Positions 31,353 to 52,885 of a stretch of 64,000 nucleotides of DNA are shown piece after piece. The notes below the pieces were generated by a model, which worked only from the letters and a program-made list of their open reading frames with translations, did not search any database and was not told where the DNA came from. A program made the position numbers and the translations under genes. Origin of the DNA: Candidatus Komeilibacteria bacterium. GTDB lineage: Bacteria; Patescibacteriota; Patescibacteriia; UBA1558; 2-01-FULL-52-15. The stretch is from NCBI GenBank assembly GCA_043801745.1, contig JAZDLR010000013.1, forward strand, positions 9,608 to 73,607. Reading direction: 5' to 3'. Each line of letters opens with the position of its first letter. Position 1 is the stretch's first letter.

Positions 31353-31735
31353 AGATAAACCACCCCGCCTTGGCGGGGTGTGTGCGTTTTAAGGCTTTGC
31401 CCTCGGTATACGAACAGGAGAGAAAGAAACAAATAAACTTTTCTACTCCTAGGATCAATAATCAGCCAACTTGTCCTACCTTCGGTTATAGCTATTCATT
31501 GCGGTGTTCCCCTCGCCGGGGAGGCATTACTTTTGTGACCAAAAGTAATCAAAAGTCTTGGGGTCGCCTAGACTCGCCCTCGGTCTATTAATCTTTAGTT
31601 TTTCTTTTCTTGGGCTCAAACAAGTAGGCGACCCCAAACCCCAAGAGTGATTTGGATAGCCGCATTATTCTATTTTCTGAAGCTGCCGTAGGCAGCGAGA
31701 ACAGAAACCCCCAGAGTTAGTGCTGGGGTATGTTC
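31353..31735 (+). ncRNA. copy 1 of a ~400-nt structured intergenic element (candidate novel ncRNA)
   Basis: Opens with hairpin CACCCCGCC-tt-GGCGGGGTG. Contains H3 ATTACTTTTG/CAAAAGTAAT, long-range helix GGGGTCGCC/GGCGACCCC, H4 GCTGCCgtaGGCAGC, and H5 CCCCAG...CTGGGG, plus conserved AGAACAGAAACC. Pairs with copy 2 through compensatory changes. Confidence 0.4.
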
Positions 31736-31774
31736 ATCTCGGTCCGGTTCAATAATTAGTGATATACTATAAGT

Positions 31775-33043
31775 ATGACAATTACCTCTCTGTCCATCGA
31801 TTCCTATAAAAGCATTATCCGGCCGTTGCGTTTAACCTTGTCGCCTCAGATTAATATTTTTATTGGTCAGAATAATAGTGGTAAAACTAATATTATTGAT
31901 GCTATTGATTTTGTTTTTAATCCCGACAAGTTTCCGAGCCGGCTGCACCATCATCGGGCACGCATTGCTATTCAGTTGGAAGATCGTCGGGAATTACTGA
32001 CGGCCCGCGGTTATGAAGTCAGCGGTTTAACGGCTGACTTGCGGGGTAAGGTCAAGCGCTTATCAGCGGATGAGCCATGGGATTTTGGTTCTATTAGCCA
32101 AGATTATCAGCGTCTTTTTAAGCTCTATCCGCAGCAGTACCAGGTTTTAAATGAGATATTCTCTAGCTATTTTCCTCATGTCGCCGGTGATGACCGGGTA
32201 ATTGATCTTGATTGGCAAGCTGGTCATGCTTTTATTCATGAGGATGATAAACCTCTGGTTTTAGAGCGGCTGGGTAGCGGTTTTCAGAAAATTTTTATTA
32301 TTTTGCTATACGCTTTTCATCCCGATTATCCAATTATACTTTTGGATGAACCAGAAACCCATCTTCATCCGGCGTTAATCAAGAAACTGGCCAAGGTTTT
32401 AGCCAGTAAGTCGACAAATCAAGTTATTTTAACCACGCATTCCCCTTTATTTATCCAAACACCATGGTTGTCAACCATCAATCGCGTGGTGCGGTCTTGG
32501 GATGAGGGTACGGTGGTTTATCATTTAGACCATACTCATCGGGGTTTGGATCCGGCACGGTTAGCCCAGGAATTGAACGCAGATAATTTGGAAATGTTTT
32601 TTGCTGACAAAGTCCTGATGGTGGAGGGTGCTTCTGATCGTTTGCTGCTGCGTGGTTTGATTGACCGTTTTTACCATGGTCCGTTGGAAGTTAAGGTGAT
32701 TGAGGCTCATGGTAAGGGCAATATGGAACTCTACCGCGATTTATTGGAGGCTTTCCATATCCCGAGTATTATTATGTTGGATTTAGACGCTTTGTCGGTT
32801 TGGCAAGCAGCAGATCGGCACTGGCGTCAAGATCCGGCCCGTTTGAAGCTGGCCTTGCAGGAATTGCGGCAGCGCGGTATATACATTCTACCCAATGGCA
32901 CAATTGAGCATAATTATCCCCGGCGTTATCAAAAAAGTGACCGTAAAACCTTGAATGCTCTGCGGGCCGCGGCGCAAATCAGTTTGTCCGAATATCAATC
33001 AGGCGAAATGGCTAATTTGCGGCAGGTAATCGAAGCCTTATAA
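31775..33043 (+). CDS. OLD-family ATP-dependent nuclease (ABC-type ATPase + TOPRIM)
   Basis: Walker A GQNNSGKTN, ABC signature LGSGFQ, Walker B ILLLDEPETHLHP, H-loop TTHSP. C-terminal TOPRIM-like motifs (MVEGASD, IIMLDLD). Confidence 0.6.
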   Translation: MTITSLSIDSYKSIIRPLRLTLSPQINIFIGQNNSGKTNIIDAIDFVFNPDKFPSRLHHHRARIAIQLEDRRELLTARGYEVSGLTADLRGKVKRLSADEPWDFGSISQDYQRLFKLYPQQYQVLNEIFSSYFPHVAGDDRVIDLDWQAGHAFIHEDDKPLVLERLGSGFQKIFIILLYAFHPDYPIILLDEPETHLHPALIKKLAKVLASKSTNQVILTTHSPLFIQTPWLSTINRVVRSWDEGTVVYHLDHTHRGLDPARLAQELNADNLEMFFADKVLMVEGASDRLLLRGLIDRFYHGPLEVKVIEAHGKGNMELYRDLLEAFHIPSIIMLDLDALSVWQAADRHWRQDPARLKLALQELRQRGIYILPNGTIEHNYPRRYQKSDRKTLNALRAAAQISLSEYQSGEMANLRQVIEAL

Positions 33044-33064
33044 ATATGGTATAATAGTGACACT

Positions 33065-34006
33065 ATGTCCCTTTGGTTAAGCGTAGTTTTGGTGTCATAT
33101 TTTATTTTAGCTATCAGTACCCTGGTAGATAAGTTTTTTTTATCCAAGGTTTTAAGTAGCAGCAGTTTTTATGTTCTCTGGGTCAGTATTTTGAGTTTAT
33201 CGGCTTTTCTGGTCATTCCCTTTCCTAGTTTGCTGCGTTGGATGAAAGTTCCGGCTCAAGACTTATCTTGGATCGGTGGCTATTGGTTGTTGATTGCCTT
33301 GATTACTGGTGCAGTGTTCACTCTGGCCCTGTATCTGTTATATTCCGCTTTGCAGAAGGGCGAGGCCTCGCGCGTAGTCCCGTTGGTGGGTGGGGGAATG
33401 CCGGTCATCATTTTTATCGTTTCCTATATTTTAAAAGTGGAAATTTTTACCGGACATAAATTAATAGCTTTTATTTTCTTGCTGGCTGGCAGTATTATTA
33501 TTACTGTTATGCCCAGCAAGAAGAGATTTTTTCAGCTGGACCAAGGTTTGTGGTGGGCGGTAGGCGCCAGTTTGTCGTTTGCGGCTTTTTTCTTGCTGAC
33601 CAAATATATGTTTTGGCAGCACAGCTTTATTGACGGTATTGTTTGGCCCCGTCTCGGTACCTTGGTGGTGATTGTTGTGATGATGTTCTGGCAGATTAAC
33701 CGGCAGCATTTAGCCCATCCTTTTAATAAAGTAGGTTGGCATCTGCGCCTGGGTCTGATTGCTAATCAGGGTTTAGCCGCTTTAGGCTTCTTGGGCCAAA
33801 ATTACGCCATTAAATTGGGCGGCAGTTTATCATTAATCTCCGCGCTTCAGGGTCTGCAATACGTTTTTATTTTAATTTTTGCCGCTCTGGTTAGTTGGCG
33901 TTTCCCCAAGCTTTTTACGGAAGAAGTATCAACTAATATTATTATTCAGAAAGTAATCGCTCTAATCCTCATTGTTATCGGTTTGTATTATAGCGCGGTG
34001 ATCTAA
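33065..34006 (+). CDS. polytopic membrane protein (about 10 TM; EamA/DMT-like)
   Basis: Highly hydrophobic 313-aa ORF. Confidence 0.5.
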   Translation: MSLWLSVVLVSYFILAISTLVDKFFLSKVLSSSSFYVLWVSILSLSAFLVIPFPSLLRWMKVPAQDLSWIGGYWLLIALITGAVFTLALYLLYSALQKGEASRVVPLVGGGMPVIIFIVSYILKVEIFTGHKLIAFIFLLAGSIIITVMPSKKRFFQLDQGLWWAVGASLSFAAFFLLTKYMFWQHSFIDGIVWPRLGTLVVIVVMMFWQINRQHLAHPFNKVGWHLRLGLIANQGLAALGFLGQNYAIKLGGSLSLISALQGLQYVFILIFAALVSWRFPKLFTEEVSTNIIIQKVIALILIVIGLYYSAVI

Positions 34007-35031
34007 TGAAACGCTTAATCAGAATAATCCGTCCGGAATATATAGGCGCGGCCGTTATTGTCGTTTTGGTGGCCCTGCTGGTTTTTATTAAGTTTGACCG
34101 TCATTATTTAGTTTTACAGAGTCATAAGGTTCCGGCTAATTTTTGGGGCATCACGTATTCTAAGAAATATGCCCAAAGTTTAGATTTGGATTGGCGGGAG
34201 GCCTATGTGGCTTTGTTGGATGATGTGGGTGTCAAGAAGATCCGCTTGCCGGTATATTGGGATGACGTGGCGCCGCAAAGTAATGAATTACGGTTTAACG
34301 ATTATGACTGGCTGATTGAAGAAGCGGCTAAGCGCGACGCTCAAGTGATAGTGGCGCTAGGTAGCCGCTTACCTCGCTGGCCAGAATGTCATTTACCGGC
34401 CTGGGCCAGTAAGCAAACAGTTACTGAACGTCAGTCCAGTGAGCTGGCTTATATCCGCAGCGCCATTGTTCATTTTCAGCGCTATAAAAATATTTCGGCC
34501 TGGCAGATTCAGAATGAATACTATGTTACCTGGTTTGGCGAATGTGATAAAGGCGCTGGCCACATTTTGCAGGAACAAATTGATTTGGTCCGTTCTTTGG
34601 ATCAGAGGCCGATTGTCTTGACCGACAGCGGTGAATTTAGTTTATGGCGCCAAGTCAGCAAGCAGGCTGATTATGTTGGTACTACGATGTACCGCGTGGC
34701 CTGGAATAAATATTTGGGTTACAGCTACGGTCCCTGGCCGGCCTGGTTATATCAATTTAAAGCCGCACTAAACGGTTTGTCTCGTTCCCGGGTTTTTGTC
34801 GCGGAATTACAAGCTGAACCTTGGCCACCGGCTTGGCGTGATATTCGGTCTCTGACTACTAGAGAAATTAACGCTTCTTTTACTTTACGGCAGTTTACTA
34901 CTAATGCTGAATTGGCCCGCCGCACTGGATTTAGCCAGGCTTATTTCTGGGGAGCGGAGTGGTGGTACTGGCTACGTCTGCAGGGTGACGACCGTTATTG
35001 GCGTTTAGCTCAAGAGTTATTTAAGCCATGA
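34006..35031 (+). CDS. membrane-anchored glycoside hydrolase (GH5/GH113-like TIM barrel)
   Basis: N-terminal TM. Motifs IRLPVYWDDV and IQNEYYVTW (candidate catalytic NE) typical of clan GH-A. Confidence 0.5.
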   Translation: MKRLIRIIRPEYIGAAVIVVLVALLVFIKFDRHYLVLQSHKVPANFWGITYSKKYAQSLDLDWREAYVALLDDVGVKKIRLPVYWDDVAPQSNELRFNDYDWLIEEAAKRDAQVIVALGSRLPRWPECHLPAWASKQTVTERQSSELAYIRSAIVHFQRYKNISAWQIQNEYYVTWFGECDKGAGHILQEQIDLVRSLDQRPIVLTDSGEFSLWRQVSKQADYVGTTMYRVAWNKYLGYSYGPWPAWLYQFKAALNGLSRSRVFVAELQAEPWPPAWRDIRSLTTREINASFTLRQFTTNAELARRTGFSQAYFWGAEWWYWLRLQGDDRYWRLAQELFKP

Positions 35032-35456
35032 AATCAGGGATTGGCCGCCGGATAGTATTGGTTGTTGGCGGGATTATTTTTTTGACCGTTGTCGTTGTTG
35101 CTGTTTGGACCGGTTTAACGCAGCACTCCAGACAGCAGACAAAAGTTATAAGGCTGGAGTTGCAACAAATTCAGACCGCCTTGCGCGATTATTTCCGCGA
35201 TCACCCAGGGGCTGACGCGGCATGGCCAGCATTTTTTGTGGCTGGTCAGGGCCCAAAGACAGTCTGGTGTGCCTCCCAACAAACTGAAGCAGTGGTTTGG
35301 AATTTACCGGAAACTATAAAAGACTACTTATACCAGTTTCCAGTTGATCCCAGTAAAGAAGTTAAAGGTGTTAGCCTCTATTTCTATCAACATGATGACA
35401 GCGGGCGCCGTTTAGGCAGCTGTACTGAAGCGGCAGATTTTTTTCTGACGCTGTAA
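35028..35456 (+). CDS. membrane-anchored hypothetical protein
   Basis: 142 aa with an N-terminal TM. Translationally coupled to the preceding gene. Confidence 0.45.
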   Translation: MKSGIGRRIVLVVGGIIFLTVVVVAVWTGLTQHSRQQTKVIRLELQQIQTALRDYFRDHPGADAAWPAFFVAGQGPKTVWCASQQTEAVVWNLPETIKDYLYQFPVDPSKEVKGVSLYFYQHDDSGRRLGSCTEAADFFLTL

Positions 35457-35573
35457 TTGTCAGACGGACAAAAAATTAGTATAATAAGGTCAGTGTAATA
35501 TATTGTTTGTAAACTCAAACTTAGCGTTATATTGGCCATTTTTTAAAATCAAGACCGATACCAAATTTAAAGC

Positions 35574-37253
35574 ATGATTTCTGATCAGCAAGTAGCCGAT
35601 TTAATGGTTAATTCGGGACTTTTAGACGCTGAAACGGTTAAAGCGTCTCAAGTCACCGCCACCAGTAAGCAGAAGAGCTTAGTGGATATTGTTTTAGATA
35701 AAAATTTGGTTAAGGCTAGTCAGTTAGGCGCGGCGATTGCCACTATTTATAAATGTCCGTTTGTGGAAATCTCCCGCGAGCAAATTAATGAGGAGGTGTT
35801 GCGTCTTTTGCCGGAATTAGTGGCTATTAAGCAGCAGGCCATTGTTTTCGGCCGTGACGCCACTGGTCTGAAGTTAGCCATGGTGGATCCTAGTAATTTC
35901 ACCGTGGTTAATCTATTGCGTAAGAAAACCGGTGAGCCGATCAGCATTTATTTTACTTTACCGTCTTTGCTCAAGGAGGCGCTAGGTCAATACCGCCGGA
36001 GTATCCGTGATGAGTTTGAAGAAATCATTAAGGCTAATCTATCTAAGGTCAAAAGCGCACAGCCGGAAGATTTATCTATTATTAAAATTGTGGATAATCT
36101 CATTGCTTATGCTCATCATAATGATGCTTCCGATATTCATATTGAGCCGCAAAAGACCACAGTTATTATCCGTTTCCGCATTGACGGTATTCTACACGAT
36201 GTTCTTAATTTTCCTCTGGATATTCATGAATTAGTAGTGGCGCGCGTCAAGATCTTGAGCCGCTTGCGCATTGACGAGCATCGTAGCGCTCAAGATGGCA
36301 AAATTGCCATGGAAATTCGCGGCGAACCCCTAGATGTGCGCGTTTCTATTCTGCCGACAGTTCATGGCGAGAAAGTAGTGATGCGTTTATTATCAGCGGC
36401 TAACAAGCATTTTAGTCTGGAAGAGTTGGGTCTGGGTGATAAGGATTTGGTGTTGGTTAAAGATGCCGCCAACCGGCCGCATGGCATGATTCTAGCCACC
36501 GGTCCTACCGGTAGCGGAAAATCCACCACCTTGTACGCTTTGGTGCAATTAATCAACAGCCGTGAGATTAATATTTCCACCATTGAAGATCCGGTGGAAT
36601 ATGATATTCCCGGAGTTAATCAGATTCAGGTTGACCCCAAGACTAATTTGACTTTTGCTTCCGGCTTACGCTCGTTATTGCGGCAAGACCCGGACGTCAT
36701 TATGGTCGGTGAAATTCGGGATGAAGAAACAGCCAGTATTGCGGTTAATTCCGCTATGACGGGTCATTTAGTTTTATCAACTTTACATACCAATGATGCG
36801 GCCACCACCCTGCCGCGGTTAATTGAAATGAAAGTTGAGCCTTTTCTGATAGCTTCCACGGTGCATATTATTATTGCCCAACGTTTAGTCCGGCGGGTTT
36901 GTCCGCATTGTATAGCCAGCTATAATTTGTCAGCAGCGCAAAAACAAGAATTGTTGGGCTATCCGCAAATTAAGCCTGAGTTGCCAACTGATCCTAATGT
37001 TGAGATCCGCCTTTATCGGGGCAATGGCTGCAATCAATGCGGTCATACCGGTTTCAAAGGCAGAATTGGTTTATTTGAAGTCATGCTCATTGACGACACT
37101 ATACGGGAAATGATTATGAAGCGGACTAATGCCGATGAAATTAAAAACGCGGCCCTGCAACGCGGCATGGTTACCATGTTACAGGACGGCTGGCATAAGG
37201 CCGTGGCCGGGAAAACTACCATTGAAGAAGTTTTGCGGGCCACCTCAGAATAA
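35574..37253 (+). CDS. pilB: type IV pilus assembly ATPase PilB/GspE
   Basis: T2SSE_N domain, Walker A GPTGSGKSTT, Asp/His boxes, and a tetracysteine motif (CPHC ... CNQCGHTG). Confidence 0.9.
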   Translation: MISDQQVADLMVNSGLLDAETVKASQVTATSKQKSLVDIVLDKNLVKASQLGAAIATIYKCPFVEISREQINEEVLRLLPELVAIKQQAIVFGRDATGLKLAMVDPSNFTVVNLLRKKTGEPISIYFTLPSLLKEALGQYRRSIRDEFEEIIKANLSKVKSAQPEDLSIIKIVDNLIAYAHHNDASDIHIEPQKTTVIIRFRIDGILHDVLNFPLDIHELVVARVKILSRLRIDEHRSAQDGKIAMEIRGEPLDVRVSILPTVHGEKVVMRLLSAANKHFSLEELGLGDKDLVLVKDAANRPHGMILATGPTGSGKSTTLYALVQLINSREINISTIEDPVEYDIPGVNQIQVDPKTNLTFASGLRSLLRQDPDVIMVGEIRDEETASIAVNSAMTGHLVLSTLHTNDAATTLPRLIEMKVEPFLIASTVHIIIAQRLVRRVCPHCIASYNLSAAQKQELLGYPQIKPELPTDPNVEIRLYRGNGCNQCGHTGFKGRIGLFEVMLIDDTIREMIMKRTNADEIKNAALQRGMVTMLQDGWHKAVAGKTTIEEVLRATSE

Positions 37254-37256
37254 TTT

Positions 37257-38468
37257 ATGAATTTTCATTACAAAGCTTACGACAAAAATAATAAGTTAGT
37301 GGAGGCCGATCTGCAAGCAGCGGATCAGACCCAGGCTCAAGTATTTCTGACCCAACAAGGGTTGGAAGTCTTGTCTTTGCAGGAGGTCATTGTTAAACCG
37401 GTGGTTCGGTCCGCTGGCGGCTGGAATTTTGGCTTGGTGTCCTTAGATCAGAAGATGCTTTTTACTAAACATCTGTCATTGATGTTAAAATCCGGCATGC
37501 CGGTTAACGAGGCTATAGCGACTTTAGTTAAGGACAATAAGGGTCATTTTAGATGGGTCTTGCGGAAAATTCTCAGCTCCATTGAGGGCGGTAATCATCT
37601 GACTGATAGTCTGGCTCTTTTTCCTCAAGTATTTGATGGATTTTATCTTAATATGGTCAAGATTGGCGAGGAGAGCGGCACCTTGGAGCGGAGCTTGGTA
37701 AATTTAGCCGATCATTTGAAAAAGACTCATGACTTACGTAATAAAATCCAGGCCGCCTTACTTTATCCGATTATTATTTTAACAGCTATGACCGGACTGG
37801 GATTTAGCTTGTCAATATTTGTTTTACCTAAATTGGCCGGATTATTTTCTTCTTTGGGCTCGGAATTACCCTGGTCAACCAGAGCCCTGATCACGACCTC
37901 GCAATTTATTAGTAATCATTGGCAGTCAATTATTGCCTGGTTTGTCTGTGCTTTGATAGCTATCTTTATTTTGCGGCGTTTACGGCCGGTGAAAAGAATT
38001 TTTCATGCCATAGCTTTACATAGTCCGATTGTAGCCAAGTTTAGCCGGACCATGAATGTCGCCTCTTTTTCCCGTAGTGTGGGGTTATTATTGACCAGTG
38101 GCATAACGTTAGATAAGGCCTTGGAAATTGTCGGCGGAAATATTTATAATGTCTATTATCAGGATGATATCAACTTTTTTCTGGAGCAGGTGAAACGCGG
38201 CGAATCTATGGGCGAGGTGATGAAATCACGGACCAGCCGGTTTCCTTTGATTGTTTCGCATATGATCAAAGTCGGTGAGCAGTCGGGTAATCTGGCGGAA
38301 ACTTTTGATTATTTGGCCAATTTTTATGAAGATGATCTGGATAATATATCTAAAAATTTATCCGGTGTTCTGGAACCAATATTATTAATTGTCATGGGAG
38401 CGGCCGTGGGATTTATCGCCTTTTCCGTTATTACGCCTATTTATGATTTCACCACCAGTGTTGGTTAA
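37257..38468 (+). CDS. pilC: type IV pilus platform protein PilC/GspF
   Basis: Two GspF repeats with 3 TM segments. Follows pilB. Confidence 0.85.
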   Translation: MNFHYKAYDKNNKLVEADLQAADQTQAQVFLTQQGLEVLSLQEVIVKPVVRSAGGWNFGLVSLDQKMLFTKHLSLMLKSGMPVNEAIATLVKDNKGHFRWVLRKILSSIEGGNHLTDSLALFPQVFDGFYLNMVKIGEESGTLERSLVNLADHLKKTHDLRNKIQAALLYPIIILTAMTGLGFSLSIFVLPKLAGLFSSLGSELPWSTRALITTSQFISNHWQSIIAWFVCALIAIFILRRLRPVKRIFHAIALHSPIVAKFSRTMNVASFSRSVGLLLTSGITLDKALEIVGGNIYNVYYQDDINFFLEQVKRGESMGEVMKSRTSRFPLIVSHMIKVGEQSGNLAETFDYLANFYEDDLDNISKNLSGVLEPILLIVMGAAVGFIAFSVITPIYDFTTSVG

Positions 38469-38994: not shown

Positions 38995-39013
38995 GAAGAT
39001 TAATAGAGTAATA

Positions 39014-39051
39014 TCGCCCACAGGGCGACCGCCCCTTGGGCGGGATTAATT
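39014..39051. repeat. GC-rich palindromic insertion (family B) flanked by 8-bp direct repeats GAGTAATA
   Basis: TCGCCCACAGGGCGA CCGCCCCTTGGGCGGG with GAGTAATA on both sides (39006-39013 and 39052-39059). Shares CGCCCACAGGGCG with the element at 60161-60194. Confidence 0.5.
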
Positions 39052-39072
39052 GAGTAATAGACTAATTGAATA

Positions 39073-41215: not shown

Positions 41216-41216
41216 T

Positions 41217-44521: not shown

Positions 44522-44577
44522 ATAAATACCCCTTTTTATGGTATATTATATACTACTAAAAACCTGTGTATAAAAAT

Positions 44578-45144: not shown

Positions 45145-45192
45145 CCAATCTTCTCTCCGCGGCAACAAAACCCATTTAACCAATTTCGATAT

Positions 45193-45783
45193 ATGAGCAA
45201 AAAAAGTCTAGGTTTTACTCTGATTGAACTTATTATAGTCGTGGCCATCATTGGTATTTTGGCAGCCGCCGCTTTTGTGGCCATTAATCCGGCTAAGCGC
45301 GTTGGCGATACTTATAACGCCCGGCGCTGGGCTGATGTGACAGCAATTTTGGATGCCATCATGACTTATGTAGTTGATAATAACGGAAATTTTCCGGCAG
45401 CCCTGGTCAATATTACTAACGCCACGGCTGGTACGTACGTTTTAGGCAATATAGCTGGCGTGGGGGCCGGAACTGGAGGCGGGTGTGGTAATGCTGCTAA
45501 TATTTATAATGGGTTAGCTAATGGCTGCGGTAATGTTTTTAGTAGTAACGGCTCTTTAGCTACTATGATTACTGGTGGCGCCGCCACAAATTGTATTGAT
45601 TTATCGTCAGCTTTGGTAGACACTTATTTACCGACAATTCCTCAAGATCCTTTGGTATCGGGTCAGGGTAATGGTAGTGCTTCCTGGACCGGTTATTATA
45701 TTTATAAGGCTAATACCAGTAACCGCATTACTGTTGGCGCTTGTCTGCCGTATAATAATACGACAATCCGGGTGGCCAAGTAG
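45193..45783 (+). CDS. type IV major pilin candidate (copy 2)
   Basis: Leader MSKKSLG then FTLIELIIVVAIIGILAAAAF. About 75% identical to copy 1. Confidence 0.75.
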   Translation: MSKKSLGFTLIELIIVVAIIGILAAAAFVAINPAKRVGDTYNARRWADVTAILDAIMTYVVDNNGNFPAALVNITNATAGTYVLGNIAGVGAGTGGGCGNAANIYNGLANGCGNVFSSNGSLATMITGGAATNCIDLSSALVDTYLPTIPQDPLVSGQGNGSASWTGYYIYKANTSNRITVGACLPYNNTTIRVAK

Positions 45784-45809
45784 TACAAGTAGATTATATT
45801 TCCAAGCAC

Positions 45810-45839
45810 CCCTACCCATCGCGGTAGGGTTGTTTTTTT
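45810..45839 (+). terminator. intrinsic terminator after the pilin genes
   Basis: CCCTACC-catcgc-GGTAGGG followed by TTGTTTTTTT. Confidence 0.6.
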
Positions 45840-45876
45840 CGCTTCAGTCGGTATTTAGGGCCGTTTTAGGGGGTTT

Positions 45877-45920
45877 ACCCCGTCCGCTCATAAGCGCTGC
45901 GCGCATTGAGCGGACGGGGT
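45877..45920. promoter_or_regulatory. 14-bp perfect inverted repeat ACCCCGTCCGCTCA...TGAGCGGACGGGGT abutting the hrcA -35
   Basis: Its 16-nt loop is itself palindromic (AGCGCtgcGCGCa). The 3' arm ends in CGGGGT fused to TTGACA. No T-run follows on either strand. Confidence 0.45.
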
Positions 45921-45947
45921 TGACAGCTTAATTTAACTTGTTATACT
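45920..45947 (+). promoter_or_regulatory. hrcA operon promoter
   Basis: TTGACA, 16-nt spacer, TATACT, placed just upstream of the CIRCE element. Confidence 0.55.
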
Positions 45948-45951
45948 GAAA

Positions 45952-45978
45952 TTAGCACTCTTTCACTGTGAGTGCCAA
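45952..45978 (+). promoter_or_regulatory. CIRCE element (HrcA operator)
   Basis: TTAGCACTC-N9-GAGTGCCAA, one mismatch from the consensus TTAGCACTC-N9-GAGTGCTAA. Confidence 0.8.
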
Positions 45979-45987
45979 TTGTCACAT

Positions 45988-46656
45988 ATGGAAGAGAGAC
46001 AGCAAAAGTTACTACAATCCGTGATTGAACATTATATTGCTACGGCTCAGCCGGTAGGATCGGTTTTTTTGGCCCAGCAGGACCAGTTTGATCTTAGCCC
46101 GGCTACTATCCGCAATGAGCTGCTGGATTTAGAGGCCCGCGGTCTGATCTATCAGCCGCATACCTCAGCCGGCCGGGTGCCGACTATTAAGGGACTGCGC
46201 TATTATCTGGAATCTTTAATGACAGTAGAGAAGTTAGATCCGGAGTATCAGGAGGCTCTACGGGACTATGTGGCTCAATGGGGTGCTAGGGGTCTGGCCA
46301 AGATAGCTGCTGAACTCAGCAGCACCGCGGTAGTAATTGCTTCGGATGTGACCAATTTTTATTACACCGGATTTAGTCGTTTATTCTTGCAGCCGGAATT
46401 TACTGATGTGGAATTAGTGCGCTCACTGACTCAGGCCGTGGACCGGCTGGATGTTATCCTACCCAAACTATTTGGTCAGCTGGAGCGAAAGCCTTTGATT
46501 CTACTGGGCCGCCATAATCCTTTTGGAGCTTTTTGCAGCGCGCTATTTATCTCCAATGCCAGAGAGCCGGAAACCATTATGGGTCTGCTGGGACCGATCC
46601 GTACGGATTACGCGCGCAACGTGGCCTTATTACGTGAAGCGGTAAACTATTTATAA
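45988..46656 (+). CDS. hrcA: heat-inducible transcription repressor HrcA (short form)
   Basis: N-terminal winged HTH (LLQSVIEHYIATAQPVGS) and ATIRNELLDLEARGLI motif. 223 aa from the ATG at 45988. Confidence 0.75.
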   Translation: MEERQQKLLQSVIEHYIATAQPVGSVFLAQQDQFDLSPATIRNELLDLEARGLIYQPHTSAGRVPTIKGLRYYLESLMTVEKLDPEYQEALRDYVAQWGARGLAKIAAELSSTAVVIASDVTNFYYTGFSRLFLQPEFTDVELVRSLTQAVDRLDVILPKLFGQLERKPLILLGRHNPFGAFCSALFISNAREPETIMGLLGPIRTDYARNVALLREAVNYL

Positions 46657-46658
46657 CT

Positions 46659-47147
46659 ATGCCAGATAAAAAAATAATTGAAGAATTACGTCAGCAATCG
46701 GAGGATAATTTATTGGGTTGGAAACGAGCCTTGGCTGACTATGAGAATTTTAAGCGGGAGCAGGATAAGCGTCAGCTGGAAATGCAGTGGTTTACCCGAG
46801 CAGCGATTATTTCTGAGCTGCTGCCATTCTTTGATAACTTTAGCCGGGCTGTGAGTCATATTCCCCAGGAGCAACAGGAGTTAAATTGGGTAGTAGGCCT
46901 AAAGCATATGCAGAGTCAAACAACTGATATTCTGAAAAATATTGGTTTGGCTGAAATCCGTCCCGAAACCGGAGCGGTCTTTGATCCGCAGATTCACGAA
47001 GCGGTTGATACCGTGCATGATCAGGCTGTCAGCGATCATACGATTACTAAAGTAATTACTGTGGGTTACCTGCTGGACGGAAAGTTATTGCGGCCGGCCG
47101 GTGTAATAGTTAATGCCCACAAGGAGGAACTAACTAATGAATCATAA
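46659..47147 (+). CDS. grpE: nucleotide exchange factor GrpE
   Basis: GrpE coiled-coil plus beta-domain motifs (RALADYENFKRE). Confidence 0.85.
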   Translation: MPDKKIIEELRQQSEDNLLGWKRALADYENFKREQDKRQLEMQWFTRAAIISELLPFFDNFSRAVSHIPQEQQELNWVVGLKHMQSQTTDILKNIGLAEIRPETGAVFDPQIHEAVDTVHDQAVSDHTITKVITVGYLLDGKLLRPAGVIVNAHKEELTNES

Positions 47148-47499
47148 TTCTCATTTTCTTAGTCTGAAACTGATCCAGAAATGTCCGGCTTGTAATTCGC
47201 AATTTCAACAGACTACGGTGACAATCCTGGAGGAGAGTGATTTCTCTTTGTTAGCTCATTTACACTGTCTCAATTGCCACGTCAATTTACTGGCTAATGT
47301 CGTTACTATGCCGCAAGGATTAGTCGGTAACGCTATTCTCATTGATTTACGCTCTGATGAAGCGCCGGTGATACTGGCGCGGCAAGCCCTGACGGAAGAC
47401 GATTGGCTCAATTTATATCAACAGGTTAGCAATAAACAATTTATCAATTCACTAAGCGATCCCCAGGCCTTAGGCCGGATCGATAACAAGAAAGAATAA
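47137..47499 (+). CDS. zinc-ribbon hypothetical protein inserted between grpE and dnaK
   Basis: CPAC...CLNCH motif. Overlaps the grpE stop by 11 nt. Confidence 0.45.
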
Positions 47500-47504
47500 T
47501 AACT

Positions 47505-49403
47505 ATGGCAAAAATATTAGGCATTGACCTTGGCACCACTAACTCCGCGATGGCTATCATGGAGGGTGGACAGCCGAAGATCTTAGAAAACAGCGAAGGT
47601 AACCGCACTACGCCTTCCATGGTGGCTGTTTCCAAATCAGGCGAACGTCTGGTCGGAGTTACGGCCAAACGTCAGGCTGTGACTAACCCGGGTAATACGG
47701 TCTTTTCGGTTAAACGGTTGATTGGCCGCCGTTTTGATGACGCTGAAGTTCAGCGTGATCTGAAAACCATGACGTACAAGATTGCTAAAAGTGGTGAGGG
47801 CGTAAAGGTCACTCTGGGCGATAAAGATTATACGCCGCAGGAAATTTCCGCTATGATTCTGCAGAAACTGAAAGCAGACGCCGAGGCCCGTCTGGGTGAA
47901 ACCATTACCGAAGCTGTTATTACTGTACCGGCTTATTTTGACGATTCGCAGCGTCAGGCTACTAAAGATGCCGGTAAGATTGCCGGTTTGGAAGTTAAAC
48001 GTATTATTAATGAGCCAACGGCGGCTGCCCTGGCTTACGGCTTTGACAAGAAGAAGGATCAGAAAATCGCTGTCTATGATCTGGGCGGCGGAACCTTTGA
48101 TATCTCTATTCTGGAAATCGGACATGACACGGTGGAGGTGAAGTCAACCAATGGTGATACTCATTTGGGTGGCGATGACTTTGATCAGCGTATAATTAAA
48201 TGGATTCTGGAAGAGTTTAAGAAACAATCCGGAGTTGATCTGGCTAATGACCGTTTGGCTTTGCAGCGTCTAAAAGAAGCGGCTGAACGCGCCAAGATTG
48301 AATTATCTTCATCTGCTGAAACCGAAATTAATCAGCCGTTTATTACTACGACAGATGCCGGACCGCAGCATTTGGTCATGAAGATGACCCGCACTAAATT
48401 AGAGGAGATTGTTGGTGATTTAGTGGCAGCTACTTTGGAACCTTGCCGTAAAGCTTTGTCCGATGCTTCCTTACAAGCGACGCAGCTGGATGAGGTTATT
48501 CTGGTCGGCGGTATGACCCGTATGCCTCTAGTTATCCAAGAGGTTGAAAAATTTTTTGGTAGGAAGGCAAACATCAGCGTCAATCCCGATGAAGTGGTTG
48601 CCTTGGGTGCCGCAGTGCAAGCCGGTGTTCTCCAGGGTGATGTCAAGGATGTTTTGTTACTGGACGTTACGCCTCTGACTTTGGGCATTGAAACTTTGGG
48701 TGGAGTGCGCACGCCAATTATTGAACGTAATACTACTATTCCTCATTCCAAGTCACAGGTGTTTTCTACGGCGGCGGATAATCAGGATTCAGTAGAAATT
48801 CATGTTTTGCAGGGCGAACGCGAAATGGCAGGAGATAATAAGACTTTGGGCCGTTTCATTCTGTCCGGCATTCCGCCAGCTCCGCGGGGTGTGCCGCAAG
48901 TTGAGGTGACTTTTGATCTGGACGTTAATGGTATTCTCAATGTCAAAGCCAAGGATAAGGCCACCGGTAAAGAACAGGCCATAACTATTACTTCCTCTTC
49001 TGGTCTGAATAAGGATGAAGTAGAGAAGATGCGTAAGGACGCCGAATTACATGCTGACGAAGATAAGAAGAAGCGTGAAGCAGCCGACTTGAAGATCAAT
49101 ACCGAATCGGTCATAGCTACCGGTGAGCGTCTATTGCGTGAAAGCGGCGATAAGATAACGGCCGAGGATAAGAAGACCCTAGAAGATAAATTAGCCGCCT
49201 TACGCGGTTTGAAGGAAAGTACTGATCAGGCAGCTGTCAAGAAAGCTCTGGAAGAAGTTAATCAGATAGCCCAAAAGATTGGCGCGGCTATGTATCAGCA
49301 ACAGCAATCTACTCCGGGATCAGCCGGCCAGGAACAAGCCCAGCAATCCGCCCCTGGCACAGGCCCGGTTGAAGGTGAAGTCGTGGAAGAGAAAAAAGAA
49401 TAA
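47505..49403 (+). CDS. dnaK: molecular chaperone DnaK
   Basis: [18 protein letters not shown] and full Hsp70 architecture. 632 aa. Confidence 0.95.
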
Positions 49404-49410
49404 GGTATAA

Positions 49411-50508
49411 ATGGCCGCCGATTACTATAAAGTATTAGGTGTAGAACGGAACGCCTCGCAAGATGATATCAAGCGGGCGTTTCGGCGTTTGGCTCATGAG
49501 CATCATCCGGATAAGCAGGGCGGTAATGCCGATAAATTTAAAGAAATAAATACTGCTTATCAGGTTTTGGGTAATGCCGAGAAGCGGCAGCAGTATGATC
49601 AGTTCGGCGCCGGTTTCGATCAGCCCGGTGGAGGAGCCGGAGGTTTCAACTGGGGTGGCGCCGGCGCTCAAGGTTATAGCCAGCAATTTGATTTCGGCGA
49701 CATCGGCGATATTTTCGGTGATATGTTTGGTTTTGGTAGTAATAGAAGCAACCGCCGCTCTGGCGCTCAGGATATTCAGATGGAAATTGCTATTGGTTTC
49801 CGTGAGGCTTATCAGGGTTTGGAGCAGGAGGTTAATCTTTATAAAAATGTTTCTTGTCATTCCTGCGGCGGTACCGGAGCGGAGGCCGGTAGTAAAGTGG
49901 AGCAGTGCTCGGTTTGTAAGGGTAATGGCCGGGTACGTAAAGTACAGAATACTATGTTGGGAGCGATTCAAGTGGAAACTATTTGTACTAATTGTCAGGG
50001 AACCGGCGAGCACATAACTAAACCGTGTAAGAAGTGTGGTGGTGTTGGTTTGATGAAAGAGCAGGAAAGTTTCAGGCTCAAGATACCGGCCGGCATCCGC
50101 GATGGTCAGACTTTGCGTTTTGCCGGCAAAGGCGAGCGCTTAACTAAAGAAGGAGGAGCGGGTGATCTTTATGTTGTGATCAGGGTGTCTAAGGATACGA
50201 CTTTTGATCGAGACGAGGACAATCTCTTAGTCAAGGTCAATGTACCGTTTACTACTTTGGCTTTGGGAGGTGAGGTCGCAGTGCCGACTATTGAGGGATC
50301 AGTCAGACTCAAGGTTCCGGCTGGAACTGCCAGCGGCAAAGTATTTAGTCTAAAGAATAAAGGTTTTACCAAATTAAGCGGCCGTGGCAGCGGTGATTTA
50401 CTAATAACTGTTAATGTTGTGGTTCCGGATAAGCTAACAAAGAAGCAGAAAGAGCTGCTGGAAGAGCTGGATAAGCAGTTTGGGGCGGAAAGAAAGAAGA
50501 GTTGGTAA
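49411..50508 (+). CDS. dnaJ: molecular chaperone DnaJ
   Basis: J domain with HPD, G/F-rich region, four CxxCxGxG zinc-finger repeats. Confidence 0.9.
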   Translation: MAADYYKVLGVERNASQDDIKRAFRRLAHEHHPDKQGGNADKFKEINTAYQVLGNAEKRQQYDQFGAGFDQPGGGAGGFNWGGAGAQGYSQQFDFGDIGDIFGDMFGFGSNRSNRRSGAQDIQMEIAIGFREAYQGLEQEVNLYKNVSCHSCGGTGAEAGSKVEQCSVCKGNGRVRKVQNTMLGAIQVETICTNCQGTGEHITKPCKKCGGVGLMKEQESFRLKIPAGIRDGQTLRFAGKGERLTKEGGAGDLYVVIRVSKDTTFDRDEDNLLVKVNVPFTTLALGGEVAVPTIEGSVRLKVPAGTASGKVFSLKNKGFTKLSGRGSGDLLITVNVVVPDKLTKKQKELLEELDKQFGAERKKSW

Positions 50509-50539
50509 AAGATTAAAACTTATTATTAACCCCCTCTAG

Positions 50540-50560
50540 CTCCCCCTTGGAAAGGGGGAG
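50540..50560. repeat. GC-rich palindrome CTCCCCCTT-gga-AAGGGGGAG (family A variant)
   Basis: 9-bp inverted repeat shortly after the dnaJ stop. Confidence 0.45.
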
Positions 50561-50585
50561 ATTCAAGGATGCAGAATTGTTAAGA

Positions 50586-50622
50586 TTGGCTAAAATAGGC
50601 CATTTTCTTTAATTTTAGCCAA
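50586..50622. promoter_or_regulatory. 11-bp inverted repeat TTGGCTAAAAT-N15-ATTTTAGCCAA upstream of the island 4 promoter
   Basis: Perfect AT-rich inverted repeat ending 9 nt before the -35. Operator-like. Confidence 0.4.
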
Positions 50623-50630
50623 TATAGCTA

Positions 50631-50659
50631 TTGACAAAATATCTGATATTAGATATAAT
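50631..50659 (+). promoter_or_regulatory. consensus sigma70 promoter for the island 4 gene
   Basis: TTGACA, 17-nt spacer, TATAAT, perfect consensus. Confidence 0.55.
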
Positions 50660-50686
50660 ACGATAATACCCAAAGTGGGTAATCGT
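50660..50686 (+). promoter_or_regulatory. palindrome ACGATAATACCCA-aag-TGGGTAATCGT at about +1..+27 of the island 4 transcript
   Basis: Imperfect 11/12-bp inverted repeat directly after the -10. An operator or 5'-UTR hairpin. Confidence 0.35.
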
Positions 50687-50755
50687 ACGTTAACATTGTC
50701 GGAATTGTCCGATTTTCTGGTTACTTAGCGTGGCTGCGGCCACAGGAGGTGGTAC

Positions 50756-52393
50756 ATGTTCGGATTCATGCTGTTCCTGATCGTTGTGGTTCTGGGCGCC
50801 GTTGTTTATGAGAATATGCGGCAGCCCAATCCTGAGACGCGGGTCTTCCCAGATTCGCGCGAACCCATCACTCAGGCAGTGACCTGGAGTCACTGCCACA
50901 CGGTCCTGGAGACCAGCCTTTACTGGCTGCTGGTGGCCATGATTTGGCCCCTGGTTGCGGGCACCATCTTCGGATGGGTCTCGCTGACCTGGTATAGCAG
51001 CTATGTCGTCCAGCACATCGCAGACGGCGGCATCTGGAACATGTTCAGTTTCGCAGTCACCAGTAACATCTTGGTGCGCTGCATCCTGATCTACTGCATC
51101 GGCTCCATAGCTCTTACGGGCTATCTGGTTGTGAACTGGCCACACGGTGTGGCCCGCTTCCTGGTAGGACGCAAGTGGCGGGTCATGAACTCCGGCTTGC
51201 ACTTTGTGCTGGGCGGCATCGTGATTGGCTACCGTACAGTAGTCGTGGATGAGGCCAAGAAGATCACCCGCCGTGAAAGGCGCTACCTTTTCGGCCGCAT
51301 TGGCCGGAATGTGTTAGTGCTGCGCGATGAACTCCGGGCTAGCGTGGTGCTGACCGAGGGCGGTCAGACAAGCGAGCAGGCGATTAAGACCCTCACTACC
51401 GAACCGTTGCCGACATCGATGTCTGTTAACGGCAACGCTGCTGCCGCAGCTGCCAGCGGTTCCGGTGGTACTACGCTGAAGTTCCCCCACAACTTCTATT
51501 TCGTGAAGTGGTGGCTGTTCACCTACCTTGGAACTTCGCCGGCTACGCTGAGCAAGCATCTGGTGACATCTGTTGATGACCTGTTCCAGGCTGATTGGCG
51601 GCGTTTCGTCGCCATCCTGGACTATGACCAGGCAAGGTTTGTGCAGGGTAACGTTTTCTGCTTCGCTGACCAGAACGATCTGGGCAGGAAGATGGAAGAG
51701 TTCAGAGTTCAGCATATCGGCCCCGTTGAGGCTTGGGCTGCCTATCAGCGGTACCTGGCTAACAGGGACGAGGTTACCGAAGGACCACGGTTTGATATCG
51801 CGGCTTTCGATAACCTCAAGGCCACGCGTAACTACGTGGCCATGGCAAGGATGATCCGCGAGCAGGCTCCGAATTCCTTGGCCTGCCGGGTGCTCAATCA
51901 GTTCGGCGTCATTCTCACCTTCTTCGGTATCGAGAACGGCATTGAAGAGGCGGGAATCGCTGCCGAACGCGAGCAGCTGAAGCAGAACCAGGTCAAGCAG
52001 CAGGCAGATTTCCTGGCCGGCGGTGCGGAAATGCGCCGGGCCATGGGAACTGTGCTGCAGCAGCACGGAATCTCGCTGGCTGTGTGGGAATCGCTGCCGG
52101 TAGGTGATCCGCTGAGGGCCCGTCTCCATAGTGAGATGATGGAAACCTGGCGTTTTACCCAGACCATGGCGACTATCGGGGACAAGGACAAGATCATCCT
52201 TGGTGGCAGCGGACAGTCCGGACTTTCCACAACCATCGCGGCCATGGCCGCAGTTCTGCCCCAGGCAAGTGGTGGAGCAGCGGCTGCGACAACGACATCC
52301 ACGTCCACGCCTCCTGTGACACCTGCTCCGCCGACCAGATCTACTGGCCGCGGCAACAGGCCTCGTCGCAGAGGCAACAGAAGCCGACCGTAA
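50756..52393 (+). CDS. membrane protein of unknown function (GC-rich island 4)
   Basis: 545 aa at ~60% GC. AGGAGG 6 nt upstream in a CCACAGGAGG context. About 5 N-terminal TM helices, then a large soluble domain with Ala/Thr/Pro-rich basic C-terminus. Confidence 0.6.
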   Translation: MFGFMLFLIVVVLGAVVYENMRQPNPETRVFPDSREPITQAVTWSHCHTVLETSLYWLLVAMIWPLVAGTIFGWVSLTWYSSYVVQHIADGGIWNMFSFAVTSNILVRCILIYCIGSIALTGYLVVNWPHGVARFLVGRKWRVMNSGLHFVLGGIVIGYRTVVVDEAKKITRRERRYLFGRIGRNVLVLRDELRASVVLTEGGQTSEQAIKTLTTEPLPTSMSVNGNAAAAAASGSGGTTLKFPHNFYFVKWWLFTYLGTSPATLSKHLVTSVDDLFQADWRRFVAILDYDQARFVQGNVFCFADQNDLGRKMEEFRVQHIGPVEAWAAYQRYLANRDEVTEGPRFDIAAFDNLKATRNYVAMARMIREQAPNSLACRVLNQFGVILTFFGIENGIEEAGIAAEREQLKQNQVKQQADFLAGGAEMRRAMGTVLQQHGISLAVWESLPVGDPLRARLHSEMMETWRFTQTMATIGDKDKIILGGSGQSGLSTTIAAMAAVLPQASGGAAAATTTSTSTPPVTPAPPTRSTGRGNRPRRRGNRSRP

Positions 52394-52413
52394 CAACGGT
52401 CGCAACAACAGCT

Positions 52414-52449
52414 CCCCCGTGTGCTTTTACAGGCACGGGGGAGTTTTTT
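52414..52449 (+). terminator. intrinsic terminator of the island 4 gene
   Basis: CCCCCGTG-tgcttttacagg-CACGGGGG followed by AGTTTTTT. Confidence 0.6.
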
Positions 52450-52452
52450 AAA

Positions 52453-52885
52453 CAGATAAGCCACCCCGCCTTGGCGGGGTGTGTTCGTTTTAAAGCGTAG
52501 CTCTTGAAGTACACATAGAAGGCGAAGAAACGGAAGGACAAGCTCTGCTCTTAGCAACTCAAATCATCCGATCTTTCTAGTTGTCCGCATACTAAGGATT
52601 GGCTTTGTTATACCCCTCGCCCCCTCGGCTTCGCTCGGGGCAGGCTTGAGGCCCTACTTTTGTAACCAAAAGTAGGGAAAAGTTTCGGGGGCGCGTAAGT
52701 CGCGTGGGTCTTTTCAGCTTAATCTTGCTTGTCGTGGCTATCAGTACGCGACCCCAAACCCCCTAAAAGATAAAATTAGCAGGTGTTGATTAAACAGTAG
52801 CGTTCTTACCTTTATCATATCAACTTAGGCCGCTACCGTAGGCAGCTAGAACAGAAACCTTCAGCGTTTAAGCTGAAGGTATGTT
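52453..52885 (+). ncRNA. copy 2 of the ~400-nt structured intergenic element
   Basis: Same 5' 45 nt (CAGATAAgCCACCCCGCCTTGGCGGGGTGTGTtCGTTTTAA). H3 is CCTACTTTTG/CAAAAGTAGG, the long-range helix is GGGGGCGCG/CGCGACCCC, and H5 is CCTTCAGC/GCTGAAGG. All are compensatory relative to copy 1. Confidence 0.4.

Follow-up and report, generated by a model that had tools for sequence, protein, structure and literature searches.

Repeats of the ERIC/IRU, Correia/NEMIS, RUP and REPIN kinds are non-coding, reside in intergenic spacers and at gene 3' ends, are present or absent between relatives, are often co-transcribed with their neighbours, form stable hairpins, and may change the end of a gene or provide its terminator; at 35-200 bp they are mostly a single long fold-back of inverted repeats, their copies number in the tens to hundreds, and target duplications accompany those derived from transposons. 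IS200/IS605-type elements and PATEs make no target duplication, have subterminal hairpins at both ends, an AT-rich motif 5' of the insertion and a strand-specific orientation, and carry a conserved structure near the right end (an RNA in IS200/IS605, whose guide-RNA scaffolds sit beside that end). ORF-less class C group II introns are ~400-700 nt long, structured, mobile and inserted shortly after intrinsic terminators, oriented like the gene that ends there, and the ROOL, GOLLD, HEARO, OLE and raiA RNAs are all long, multi-helix and non-coding, some of them on mobile DNA, with hundreds of members showing statistical covariation. Few mobile elements and few non-coding RNAs are on record for CPR/Patescibacteria, whose tiny genomes are tightly packed.

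The element described here, two copies of which were found in a 64 kb stretch (the window, i.e., the whole of the DNA analysed) of a Candidatus Komeilibacteria metagenome-assembled genome, is like the first group in its non-coding intergenic presence/absence, its stable hairpins and the gene end it alters, but is ~400 bp long and has several branches, its internal helices being maintained through paired changes, and it has two known copies, an 8-nt inverted repeat and no target duplication. The IS200/IS605 and PATE traits listed above seem to be present in it as well, the AT-rich motif being read from two sites, whereas the hairpins at its two ends differ from one another, no TnpA, TnpB or IscB is encoded nearby, and no scaffold model matches it; it is no more than a candidate member. 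It is of similar size to the class C introns, structured, and shares their placement and orientation relative to intrinsic terminators, with GUGUGCG after the left hairpin in copy 1 (GUGUUCG in copy 2), and it differs from the long RNAs in finding no covariance-model match and in counting two members, not hundreds. We put a probability of roughly 0.5 on the reading that the copies represent a previously undescribed, non-coding, non-autonomous insertion element of ~390-440 bp residing in two short intergenic spacers. Their extents, taken from pairwise alignment of the copies, are as follows:

31352-31739, no strand assigned, element copy 1 (388 nt)
52453-52890, no strand assigned, element copy 2 (438 nt)

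These positions agree within a few bases with those of the preliminary description of this DNA. The copies are collinear and in the same orientation (both read on the plus strand), on G-rich, leading-strand sequence, and 254 of 381 aligned columns (67%) are identical, very unevenly so: identity is 0.97 at the left end, 0.87 near the right end, and 0.2-0.5 between. The leftmost 45 nt, already reported as almost identical, differ at two positions, and the words CCACCCCGCCTTGGCGGGGTGTGT, GCGACCCCAAACCCC and CCGTAGGCAGCNAGAACAGAAACC, likewise noticed earlier as common to both copies, each occur exactly twice in the window against a chance expectation of 0-0.1. Loops, helix tips and linkers, by comparison, have diverged between the copies, and indels of 23 and 30 nt fall there. 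No third copy was found by an nhmmer profile or by a covariance model of the H3 and long-range-helix core in 195 kb comprising the window and relatives. Neither copy holds a conserved ORF or a ribosome-binding site, and six-frame translations of both returned nothing at E <= 1 from 5.8 billion proteins. The element is a discrete unit: its two ends are the same in both of its unrelated contexts.

Those contexts are, as had been described, the DNA directly upstream of an OLD-family gene (copy 1) and that following the terminator of a GC-rich gene, with the dus stop codon in the last hairpin (copy 2). More exactly, copy 1 stands between the terminator of a CAP-domain gene and the promoter of an OLD-type ATPase/TOPRIM gene starting 35 nt to its right, and copy 2 between the terminator of a 545-aa gene and dus, the stop codon of which (52868-52870) falls within the H5 loop. 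The CAP-to-OLD spacer is 480 nt here versus 97 nt in L043 (where the OLD protein is 79% identical) and 67 nt in L044, gene order being the same on both sides, and the spacer from dus to its convergent neighbour is 474 nt here versus ~60, 62 and 160 nt in L005, L009 and L010. Two features belong to these neighbours:

31758-31768, plus strand, extended -10 (TGaTATACT) of the OLD-like gene, in the flank outside the element, as read from the sequence
52868-52891, minus strand, last seven dus codons and stop (E I N I P S A *), a C-terminal extension absent from all relatives

The extended -10 is conserved in L043 and L044 and intact after the insertion, while all but the first base of the dus extension is supplied by the right end of the element. 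The dus protein ends here in ILAEINIPSA*, ten relatives ending two to six residues past the conserved I/V-L; in-silico removal of 52453-52890 yields GCA GTT TAA (ILAV*), a normal dus end with its stop 4 nt before the terminator stem, as in L005. On the minus strand, UUUCUGUUCU after copy 2 H5 is terminator-like for dus. As the spacers are short and empty in the syntenic relatives, and dus regains a normal end upon removal, both copies are, judging by this comparison, lineage-specific insertions, and this context favours an inserted, probably mobile, element over a conserved housekeeping RNA gene. The mobility is read from two insertion sites, i.e., two copies in one metagenome-assembled genome. 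At copy 1, the insertion lies between a terminator and a promoter, neither of which is broken; sites beside terminators are perhaps just those tolerated in a compact genome. Adjacency to the OLD gene is incidental, because this gene keeps the same neighbours in relatives that are devoid of the element, and a functional link to the OLD nuclease was dismissed on that ground. The copies were also rejected as attL/attR of a 21 kb island, the intervening genes being native, syntenic and housekeeping, and an intron in dus was rejected as copy 1 is not within a gene.

Six helices are near-perfect in both copies, and those named in the text are:

31361-31380, no strand assigned, left-end hairpin HA of copy 1, CACCCCGC-CUUG-GCGGGGUG
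52462-52481, no strand assigned, left-end hairpin HA of copy 2, same sequence as in copy 1
31526-31549, no strand assigned, hairpin H3 of copy 1, ATTACTTTTG-TGAC-CAAAAGTAAT
52653-52676, no strand assigned, hairpin H3 of copy 2, CCTACTTTTG-TAAC-CAAAAGTAGG
31560-31635, no strand assigned, long-range helix of copy 1, GGGGTCGCCTA (31560-31570) pairing with TAGGCGACCCC (31625-31635)
52687-52755, no strand assigned, long-range helix of copy 2, GGGGGCGCGTA pairing with TACGCGACCCC
31682-31696, no strand assigned, hairpin H6 of copy 1, GCTGCC-GTA-GGCAGC, then the conserved word AGAACAGAAACC
52832-52846, no strand assigned, hairpin H6 of copy 2, GCTACC-GTA-GGCAGC
31709-31728, no strand assigned, right-end hairpin H5 of copy 1, 6 bp
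52857-52880, no strand assigned, right-end hairpin H5 of copy 2, 9 bp

Across these two sequences, three helices contain five base pairs of which both partners changed and pairing was kept. The covariation that the preliminary description had pointed out holds for H3 (ATTACTTTTG/CAAAAGTAAT in copy 1 versus CCTACTTTTG/CAAAAGTAGG in copy 2) and for H5 (CCCCAG/CTGGGG versus CCTTCAGC/GCTGAAGG), at two compensated pairs each; in the long-range helix (GGGGTCGCC/GGCGACCCC versus GGGGGCGCG/CGCGACCCC), the pairing probability of which is ~1 in copy 1, one compensated pair stands, but copy 2 has a G.A mismatch that had gone unmentioned. R-scape-type covariation statistics need more than two sequences; the support comes from shuffles and simulation. 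Single copies fold better than their own shuffles (z -3.4 to -4.8), the consensus fold exceeds that of column-shuffled alignments at z = -7.8 on the plus and -12.9 on the minus strand, and the structure conservation index (SCI) is 0.55 (plus) and 0.65 (minus) against a null of 0.33 +/- 0.04 from column-shuffled alignments. Simulating the six robust helices (51 pairs, 14 substitutions) gave P ~5e-6 for five compensated pairs, with helices picked post hoc. When the fold of one copy was mapped onto the other, the count of compensated pairs was weakly above the null (P 0.03-0.5) and that of broken pairs below expectation (P <= 0.01), and substitutions touch 14 of 102 stem positions versus roughly 35-60% elsewhere in the element. 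These results support a conserved secondary structure, in part with compensation, to a degree not expected of a duplicate in free decay, in line with the earlier proposal of selection on structure in place of plain duplication, for which the consensus-fold z-scores and SCI, the fewer broken pairs, the simulated P and the very uneven conservation along the element speak. Template switching within quasi-palindromes can also yield paired changes in short hairpins, with no selection on a folded molecule.

None of the curated families accounts for this fold. At gathering thresholds, Rfam finds only five tRNAs in the whole window, and Rfam 15 at E <= 10, searched with both copies on both strands, gives only unrelated short matches far below threshold, the best of which (ncr1175, 33 of 60 bits) is placed on the neighbouring terminator and HA; the scan that had been suggested for both copies therefore found no family, and the earlier failure to recognise RNase P, tmRNA, SRP, 6S or group II holds even at that lenient cutoff, group I introns included. 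RNase P was rejected because AGAACAGAAACC, superficially like the ACAGAA of P4, has no GGAAAGUCC partner, and a tRNA interrupted by a group I intron because D-arm and T-arm features are missing. A group II intron is contradicted by the lack of a domain V and of a match to any Rfam group II model, by H6, the sole AGC-containing hairpin, being 6 bp with a triloop, and by GUGUU in copy 2 versus the required GUGYG. Searches for homologues were equally negative: the exact seed GTAGGCAGCNAGAACAGAAAC has four matches in GTDB genomes, from unrelated taxa and with none of the other motifs (the best, in Marinobacter, lies inside a coding region); JGI metagenomes gave no match for the left-hairpin 24-mer and 30 for GGCAGCNAGAACAGAAACC, all confined to the seed; four different blocks gave none in IMG/VR; and blastn in distant mode returned nothing for copy 1 in the phage collection or for copy 2 in the plasmid collection. 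Such an absence of further members is unusual for a mobile family, although the lineage is barely sampled.

The preliminary description had called the element an unrecognised structured RNA, and of this the structure stands, whereas its RNA nature does not follow, as the helices, being almost all Watson-Crick, can form on both strands alike, and just as well in single-stranded DNA. A possible, if on balance unlikely, alternative is nonetheless a family of structured small-RNA genes, i.e., two paralogous ~400 nt RNAs, likely minus-strand, acting in trans or as a dus 3' UTR, in which the closing stem would join the 5' and 3' ends and the invariant GC-rich hairpin would be the intrinsic terminator. 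Such genes would fit the structure being conserved more strongly on the minus strand (by z-score and SCI alike), the location of copy 2 directly downstream of, and co-oriented with, dus, and the indels at helix tips and linkers, as in real RNAs. The tally of one-sided changes that give G.U on one strand and A.C on the other is 4 for minus (H6, where the changed position in copy 2 is A.C on the plus strand and G.U on the minus; the long-range-helix extension, twice; and the closing stem of copy 1), but 2 favour plus (the closing stem of copy 2 and the GAACA/UGUUY helix), and a minus-only long-range helix proposed by RNAalifold, UUCUGUUCU/GGAGUAGAA, was discarded, having ~0 probability in single-sequence ensembles. 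HA, identical in both copies, has a U-rich tract after it on both strands and scores as terminator-like with that tail on the minus strand; terminator-like hairpins are, for that matter, present at both element ends on both strands. As for a promoter, shortly before copy 1 begins on the minus strand there is a promoter-like TTGTCA-18-AATTAT, but this is in flanking DNA, and promoter-like sites around copy 1 are no more numerous than chance allows (2 found versus 1.3 expected); copy 2 has none, so that no such site is common to both, and a scan for sigma-70-type consensus found no promoter inside the repeated unit near the ends of either copy on either strand. Moreover, both loci are insertions missing in relatives, by which such an RNA would not be conserved even within the family, and it is the ends, as in mobile elements, that are conserved best.

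Considerably less probable is a deletion derivative of an IS200/IS605-type element that transposes as single-stranded DNA (PATE-like), mobilised by TnpA and kept by TnpB/IscB encoded elsewhere, perhaps with an omega-RNA-like guide-RNA scaffold retained beside the right end. Copy 1 is flanked by TTATTAAC and CGGTCC and copy 2 by TTTTTAAA and CTGCTA; as would be expected of such a derivative, there is no target-site duplication at either copy, the flanks sharing just a 1-nt C ambiguity. Both left flanks place the element a few bases past the T-tract of the upstream gene's terminator, and the AT-rich pentanucleotides TTAAC and TTAAA stand directly 5' of the left ends (two sites only); TTTAA-type transposon-adjacent motifs have been reported for some TnpB systems. 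The shared orientation on G-rich leading-strand sequence and the conserved structure adjoining the right end fit too, as does the GC-rich hairpin inside each end, 9-10 nt from the left and 11-12 nt from the right. TnpA, however, normally recognises near-identical hairpins at both ends, and here the left and right ones are unlike in sequence, the right one also differing between the copies. The ends further form a short terminal inverted repeat (AGATAAAC / GTTYATCT, ~8 nt, one mismatch per copy), no gene for TnpA, TnpB, IscB or any other transposase, recombinase or reverse transcriptase was found in the 64 kb window, and no Rfam model matches, although Rfam includes the HEARO and IS605-orfB motifs.

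That same inverted repeat, together with the intergenic position and the emptiness of both sites in syntenic relatives, would suit an ordinary MITE derived from a DDE transposon, or an old duplication decaying neutrally, which we regard as very improbable: target duplications are wanting, the repeat extends no further to any significant degree (p ~0.05 for copy 1, not significant for copy 2, so that long terminal inverted repeats were rejected), no related IS, or IS with these ends, turned up in the window or the collections, and the paired changes and the low substitution in stems argue against neutral decay, which yields neither. A type I toxin-antitoxin locus, i.e., a folded ~400 nt mRNA with 5'-3' pairing that encodes a small hydrophobic peptide, fits the size, closing stem, terminal hairpin, multi-copy intergenic placement and lineage-specific presence, and a 25-codon ATG ORF does run through a conserved block (GFGVAY) on the minus strand of both copies, but it is scarcely credible: the two peptides lack collinearity, GFGVAY occupying residues 9-14 of one and 20-25 of the other; no ribosome-binding site precedes either ORF; the hydrophobic stretch of both is too short to span a membrane; and within the block, but not in its flanks, all three codon positions are conserved, a non-coding pattern.

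Returning to the insertion element that we favour, it would have entered two short spacers of the Candidatus Komeilibacteria lineage, and selection would act on its single-stranded form, be it RNA or ssDNA: either a transcript made by read-through from neighbouring genes (read-through being proposed as the unit has no promoter of its own) or, as for hairpin-dependent elements, a transposition intermediate made of ssDNA. A protein from another locus of the genome may use the conserved ends as its sites, and the C-terminus, stop codon and terminator-like hairpin that copy 2 supplies to dus would be a side effect. A further-reaching version, which we consider rather doubtful, is that of a new class of ~400-nt mobile structured RNA in CPR bacteria, unrelated to curated families, the fold of which is functional in its own spread or maintenance; such an RNA might serve a recombinase or nuclease encoded elsewhere as a guide- or bridge-type RNA, or be a transcript the ends of which define the mobile unit.

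The case is built on two copies in one metagenome-assembled genome, that of a Candidatus Komeilibacteria bacterium, where a 400-nt non-coding insertion with a kept fold costs a tiny genome space, which suggests that something maintains the element. The dus locus offers a clean example of an insertion rewriting the C-terminus, stop codon and terminator of a gene without destroying it. Should the element be an RNA, it would represent a family of large structured RNAs that is new and without known relatives; a transposon relic with a functional single-stranded structure would instead imply an active but as yet unseen mobilising system in this lineage.

The preliminary description had proposed two diverged copies of one intergenic element, and two homologous, collinear copies are borne out by their coordinates, by the words that they have in common and by an alignment in which 254 of 381 aligned columns (67%) are identical, with 65 gap columns.

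Copies of the element in the window
31352-31739, 388 nt, copy 1, same orientation as copy 2 and collinear with it
52453-52890, 438 nt, copy 2, same orientation as copy 1 and collinear with it

Identity is very uneven along the element, reaching 0.97 at the left end (two differences within the left 45 nt) and 0.87 near the right end, being high around the internal hairpin H3 and the long-range helix, and falling to 0.2-0.5 in between. For each of the words CCACCCCGCCTTGGCGGGGTGTGT, GCGACCCCAAACCCC and CCGTAGGCAGCNAGAACAGAAACC there are exactly two occurrences in the 64 kb, where about zero would be expected, and no third copy was found in the window by either an nhmmer profile or a covariance model.

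The comparison with relatives argues for insertion. In the closest available relative (L043, GCA_964540995.1), whose OLD-like protein is 79% identical, gene order is as in the window (DinB ... sortase, surface proteins, CAP-domain protein, OLD-like protein, transporter, GH5, pilB onward), and the spacer between the CAP-domain and OLD-like genes measures 97 nt there and 67 nt in a second relative, L044, vs 480 nt in the window. All three of these genomes keep the OLD-like gene's extended -10 (TGnTATACT); in the window it lies just right of copy 1, so that this copy falls exactly between terminator and promoter. At the other site, relatives with a Dus 59-63% identical show dnaJ, a homologue of the gene for a 545-aa protein and then a convergent dus, the spacer between the last two being about 60, 62 and 160 nt (L005, L009 and L010, respectively) vs 474 nt in the window. 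The window Dus ends in ...ILAEINIPSA*, the ten relatives compared ending 2-6 residues past the conserved I/V-L, and the right end of copy 2 encodes this extension and the stop, except for the first base of the Glu codon (GAG ATA AAC ATA CCT TCA GCT TAA). Removing 52453-52890 in silico yields GCA GTT TAA (ILAV*), 4 nt ahead of the terminator stem, a layout that L005 has as well. Given the short spacers in relatives and the normal dus end restored by the deletion, comparison of these sequences indicates that both copies are lineage-specific insertions.

The preliminary description had placed copy 1 immediately upstream of an OLD-family gene, and, while the position stands, it is incidental: the OLD-type ATPase/TOPRIM gene (31775-33043, 422 aa) has more than 200 homologues across Patescibacteria and the same neighbours in Komeilibacteria relatives (L043-L045; CAP protein upstream; transporter, GH5 and pilB downstream), and is thus a conserved syntenic gene, not a variable part of a defence island. 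The 21 kb between the copies hold this gene, an EamA transporter, a GH5 enzyme, a type IV pilus cluster, hrcA-grpE-dnaK-dnaJ and the 545-aa protein, and, as relatives keep the order of these intervening genes, the idea that the copies mark the ends of an island was rejected. No transposase, recombinase, reverse transcriptase, TnpB or IscB gene is present within the window. The 545-aa gene is native despite its composition, since it has positional homologues in relatives.

Several other features of these genomes were recorded along the way. High-GC genes lie at 92-556 (-), 15327-15890 (-), 50756-52393 (+) and 60254-61318 (-), in 1-kb bins of 50-57% GC vs about 40-49% elsewhere; Pfam matches only one of the four, and that one weakly (PRPP-synthetase N-terminal). 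Two tandem small ORFs at 20764-21018 and 21047-21295 (+; 84 and 82 aa) look paralogous, with the motifs PEQWI/APDWI and RFRxxV in common, and tandem class II aminoacyl-tRNA synthetase genes of the Asp/Asn/Lys type occupy 705-1991 and 2048-3466 (+). A small PF05635 gene (23S rRNA IVS protein, weakly bAvd-like) was seen in L044 (698-1479) and L010 (3083-3427), the L044 one lying between the S24 peptidase and DinB genes that are adjacent in the window, which is another small insertion difference. Around a pilin-like gene of L043 lie two spacers of unusual length in which no gene is called (1485-1838 and 2245-2821; 353 and 576 nt), neither showing similarity to the element by nhmmer.

The ends of the element are alike in both contexts, reading (C)AGATAAR on the left and GTTYATCT(C) on the right, with a single ambiguous C at each junction, and target duplication is absent at both insertion sites. 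The left flanks are TTATTAAC (copy 1) and TTTTTAAA (copy 2), the left ends falling 8 nt and 3 nt, respectively, past the T-tract of the upstream terminator. Together the two ends make up an inverted repeat of 8 nt, mismatched at one position in each copy; any longer inverted similarity is marginal (p ~0.05 in copy 1, not significant in copy 2). Some 10 nt in from either end there is a GC-rich hairpin, both hairpins scoring as terminator-like in both directions, and no promoter-like site common to both copies was found on either strand. The element's first 8 nt (CAGATAAA) also occur 47 nt upstream of copy 1, directly past the CAP stop codon, where 31305-31351 reads CAGATAAA, a hairpin and then GTGCGTTTT (the CAP terminator), loosely mirroring the left module; this likeness may be fortuitous, may be left over from an earlier event or may hint at the target. 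CAGATAAR sites number 7 in the window vs 4.3 expected, which is not significant. The native dus end of L005 (8680-8697) reads TTAGATAAAAATTAA. Within it, roughly where the window carries copy 2, stands AGATAAA, which is the core of the terminal repeat of the element; this could reflect a target preference or coincidence in AT-rich sequence; of the two relatives read there, L009 lacks this core at its dus 3' end.

As for the fold, both copies do better than their dinucleotide shuffles on either strand, by 3.4 to 4.8 sd. RNAalifold gives a consensus energy of -77.2 kcal/mol for the plus and -92.3 kcal/mol for the minus strand, vs -37.5 +/- 5 kcal/mol for column-shuffled alignments (z = -7.8 and -12.9, respectively), and the structure conservation index is 0.55 (plus) and 0.65 (minus) vs a shuffled null of 0.33 +/- 0.04. 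Six helices are clear in both copies, namely the closing stem, HA, H3, the long-range helix, the internal hairpin H6 and the right-end hairpin H5.

Helices with further detail
Closing stem, AGAUAAAC/GUUYAUCU, both copies
HA, left hairpin, invariant between the copies
Long-range helix, 11 bp, both copies

These helices comprise 51 pairs with 14 substituted positions between the copies. Ten of the 14 make up five compensated pairs, in which both partners changed and pairing was kept (H3 and H5 with two each, the long-range helix with one), three are transitions giving G.U on one strand and A.C on the other, and one produces a G.A mismatch in copy 2 that the preliminary description did not mention. 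At least five compensated pairs would arise with P ~5e-6 when 14 substitutions are placed randomly by simulation, the helices having been picked after inspection. When the fold of one copy is mapped onto the other, broken pairs are significantly below expectation (P <= 0.01), and the excess of compensated pairs is weak (P 0.03-0.5). The helix-by-helix covariation claimed initially thus holds as a conserved fold with five compensated pairs, although five pairs from two sequences are no statistic. A 23-nt indel extends a hairpin tip and a 30-nt indel falls in a linker, both behaving as expected in a structured molecule.

Since nearly all pairs are Watson-Crick, they are uninformative on strand. 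The minus strand is favoured by changes in H6 of copy 2, in the closing stem of copy 1 and, twice, in the extended part of the long-range helix; those in the closing stem of copy 2 and in a GAACA/UGUUY helix favour the plus strand. An extra helix, UUCUGUUCU/GGAGUAGAA, contributes a large share of the better consensus energy on the minus strand, yet has about zero probability in single-sequence ensembles, and the lean towards the minus strand is a slight one.

A cmscan of both copies against Rfam, suggested in the preliminary description, matched no family at gathering thresholds, and at E <= 10 gave just short, unrelated sub-threshold matches on either strand. A coding role was rejected, the ORFs being short, non-collinear between the copies and without a ribosome-binding site; six-frame translations had no match in a set of 5.8 billion proteins. 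Relatives of the element were sought by exact-seed scans of the GTDB genomes (596 Gb), of the JGI metagenomes and of IMG/VR; by blastn, with copy 1 run against a phage and copy 2 against a plasmid collection; by the translated search; and by profile and covariance-model searches over some 195 kb of sequence from relatives. All of these gave chance matches or no match at all. For now the family is an orphan. The window belongs to a metagenome-assembled genome labelled Candidatus Komeilibacteria (CPR/Patescibacteria), a poorly sampled lineage: its Dus and OLD-like proteins are 100% identical to proteins of an NCBI metagenome-assembled genome, and the next-closest Dus is 71% identical.

What, then, is the unit? 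Fixed and conserved ends, two insertions in conserved spacers and the lack of a promoter, an ORF or a duplication fit a non-autonomous insertion element better than duplicated sRNA genes, yet a plain sRNA gene family, with which the conserved fold would agree, is a serious, if less likely, rival. Neutral decay of a repeat is unlikely given near-perfect helices, and a type I toxin-antitoxin module is unlikely as well. Near-perfect helices beside freely varying loops and linkers, in copies differing at a third of positions, point to selection on a folded single strand, which may have acted in place or in the source lineages of each insertion, that strand being possibly a transcript or a transposition intermediate. 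Insertion after terminators is shared with class C group II introns, from which the element differs in having neither a domain V nor an Rfam model match; no group II intron was detected when 95 complete Patescibacteria genomes were surveyed (PMC13011429). The closest mechanistic analogue would be the hairpin-dependent ssDNA transposons of the IS200/IS605 group and their PATE derivatives. Of the unrecognised structured RNA proposed at the outset, the structure and the place outside known families are retained, but the data point to something inserted: an insertion element that is real and non-random, structured, non-coding, specific to this lineage, outside every known family and probably mobile.
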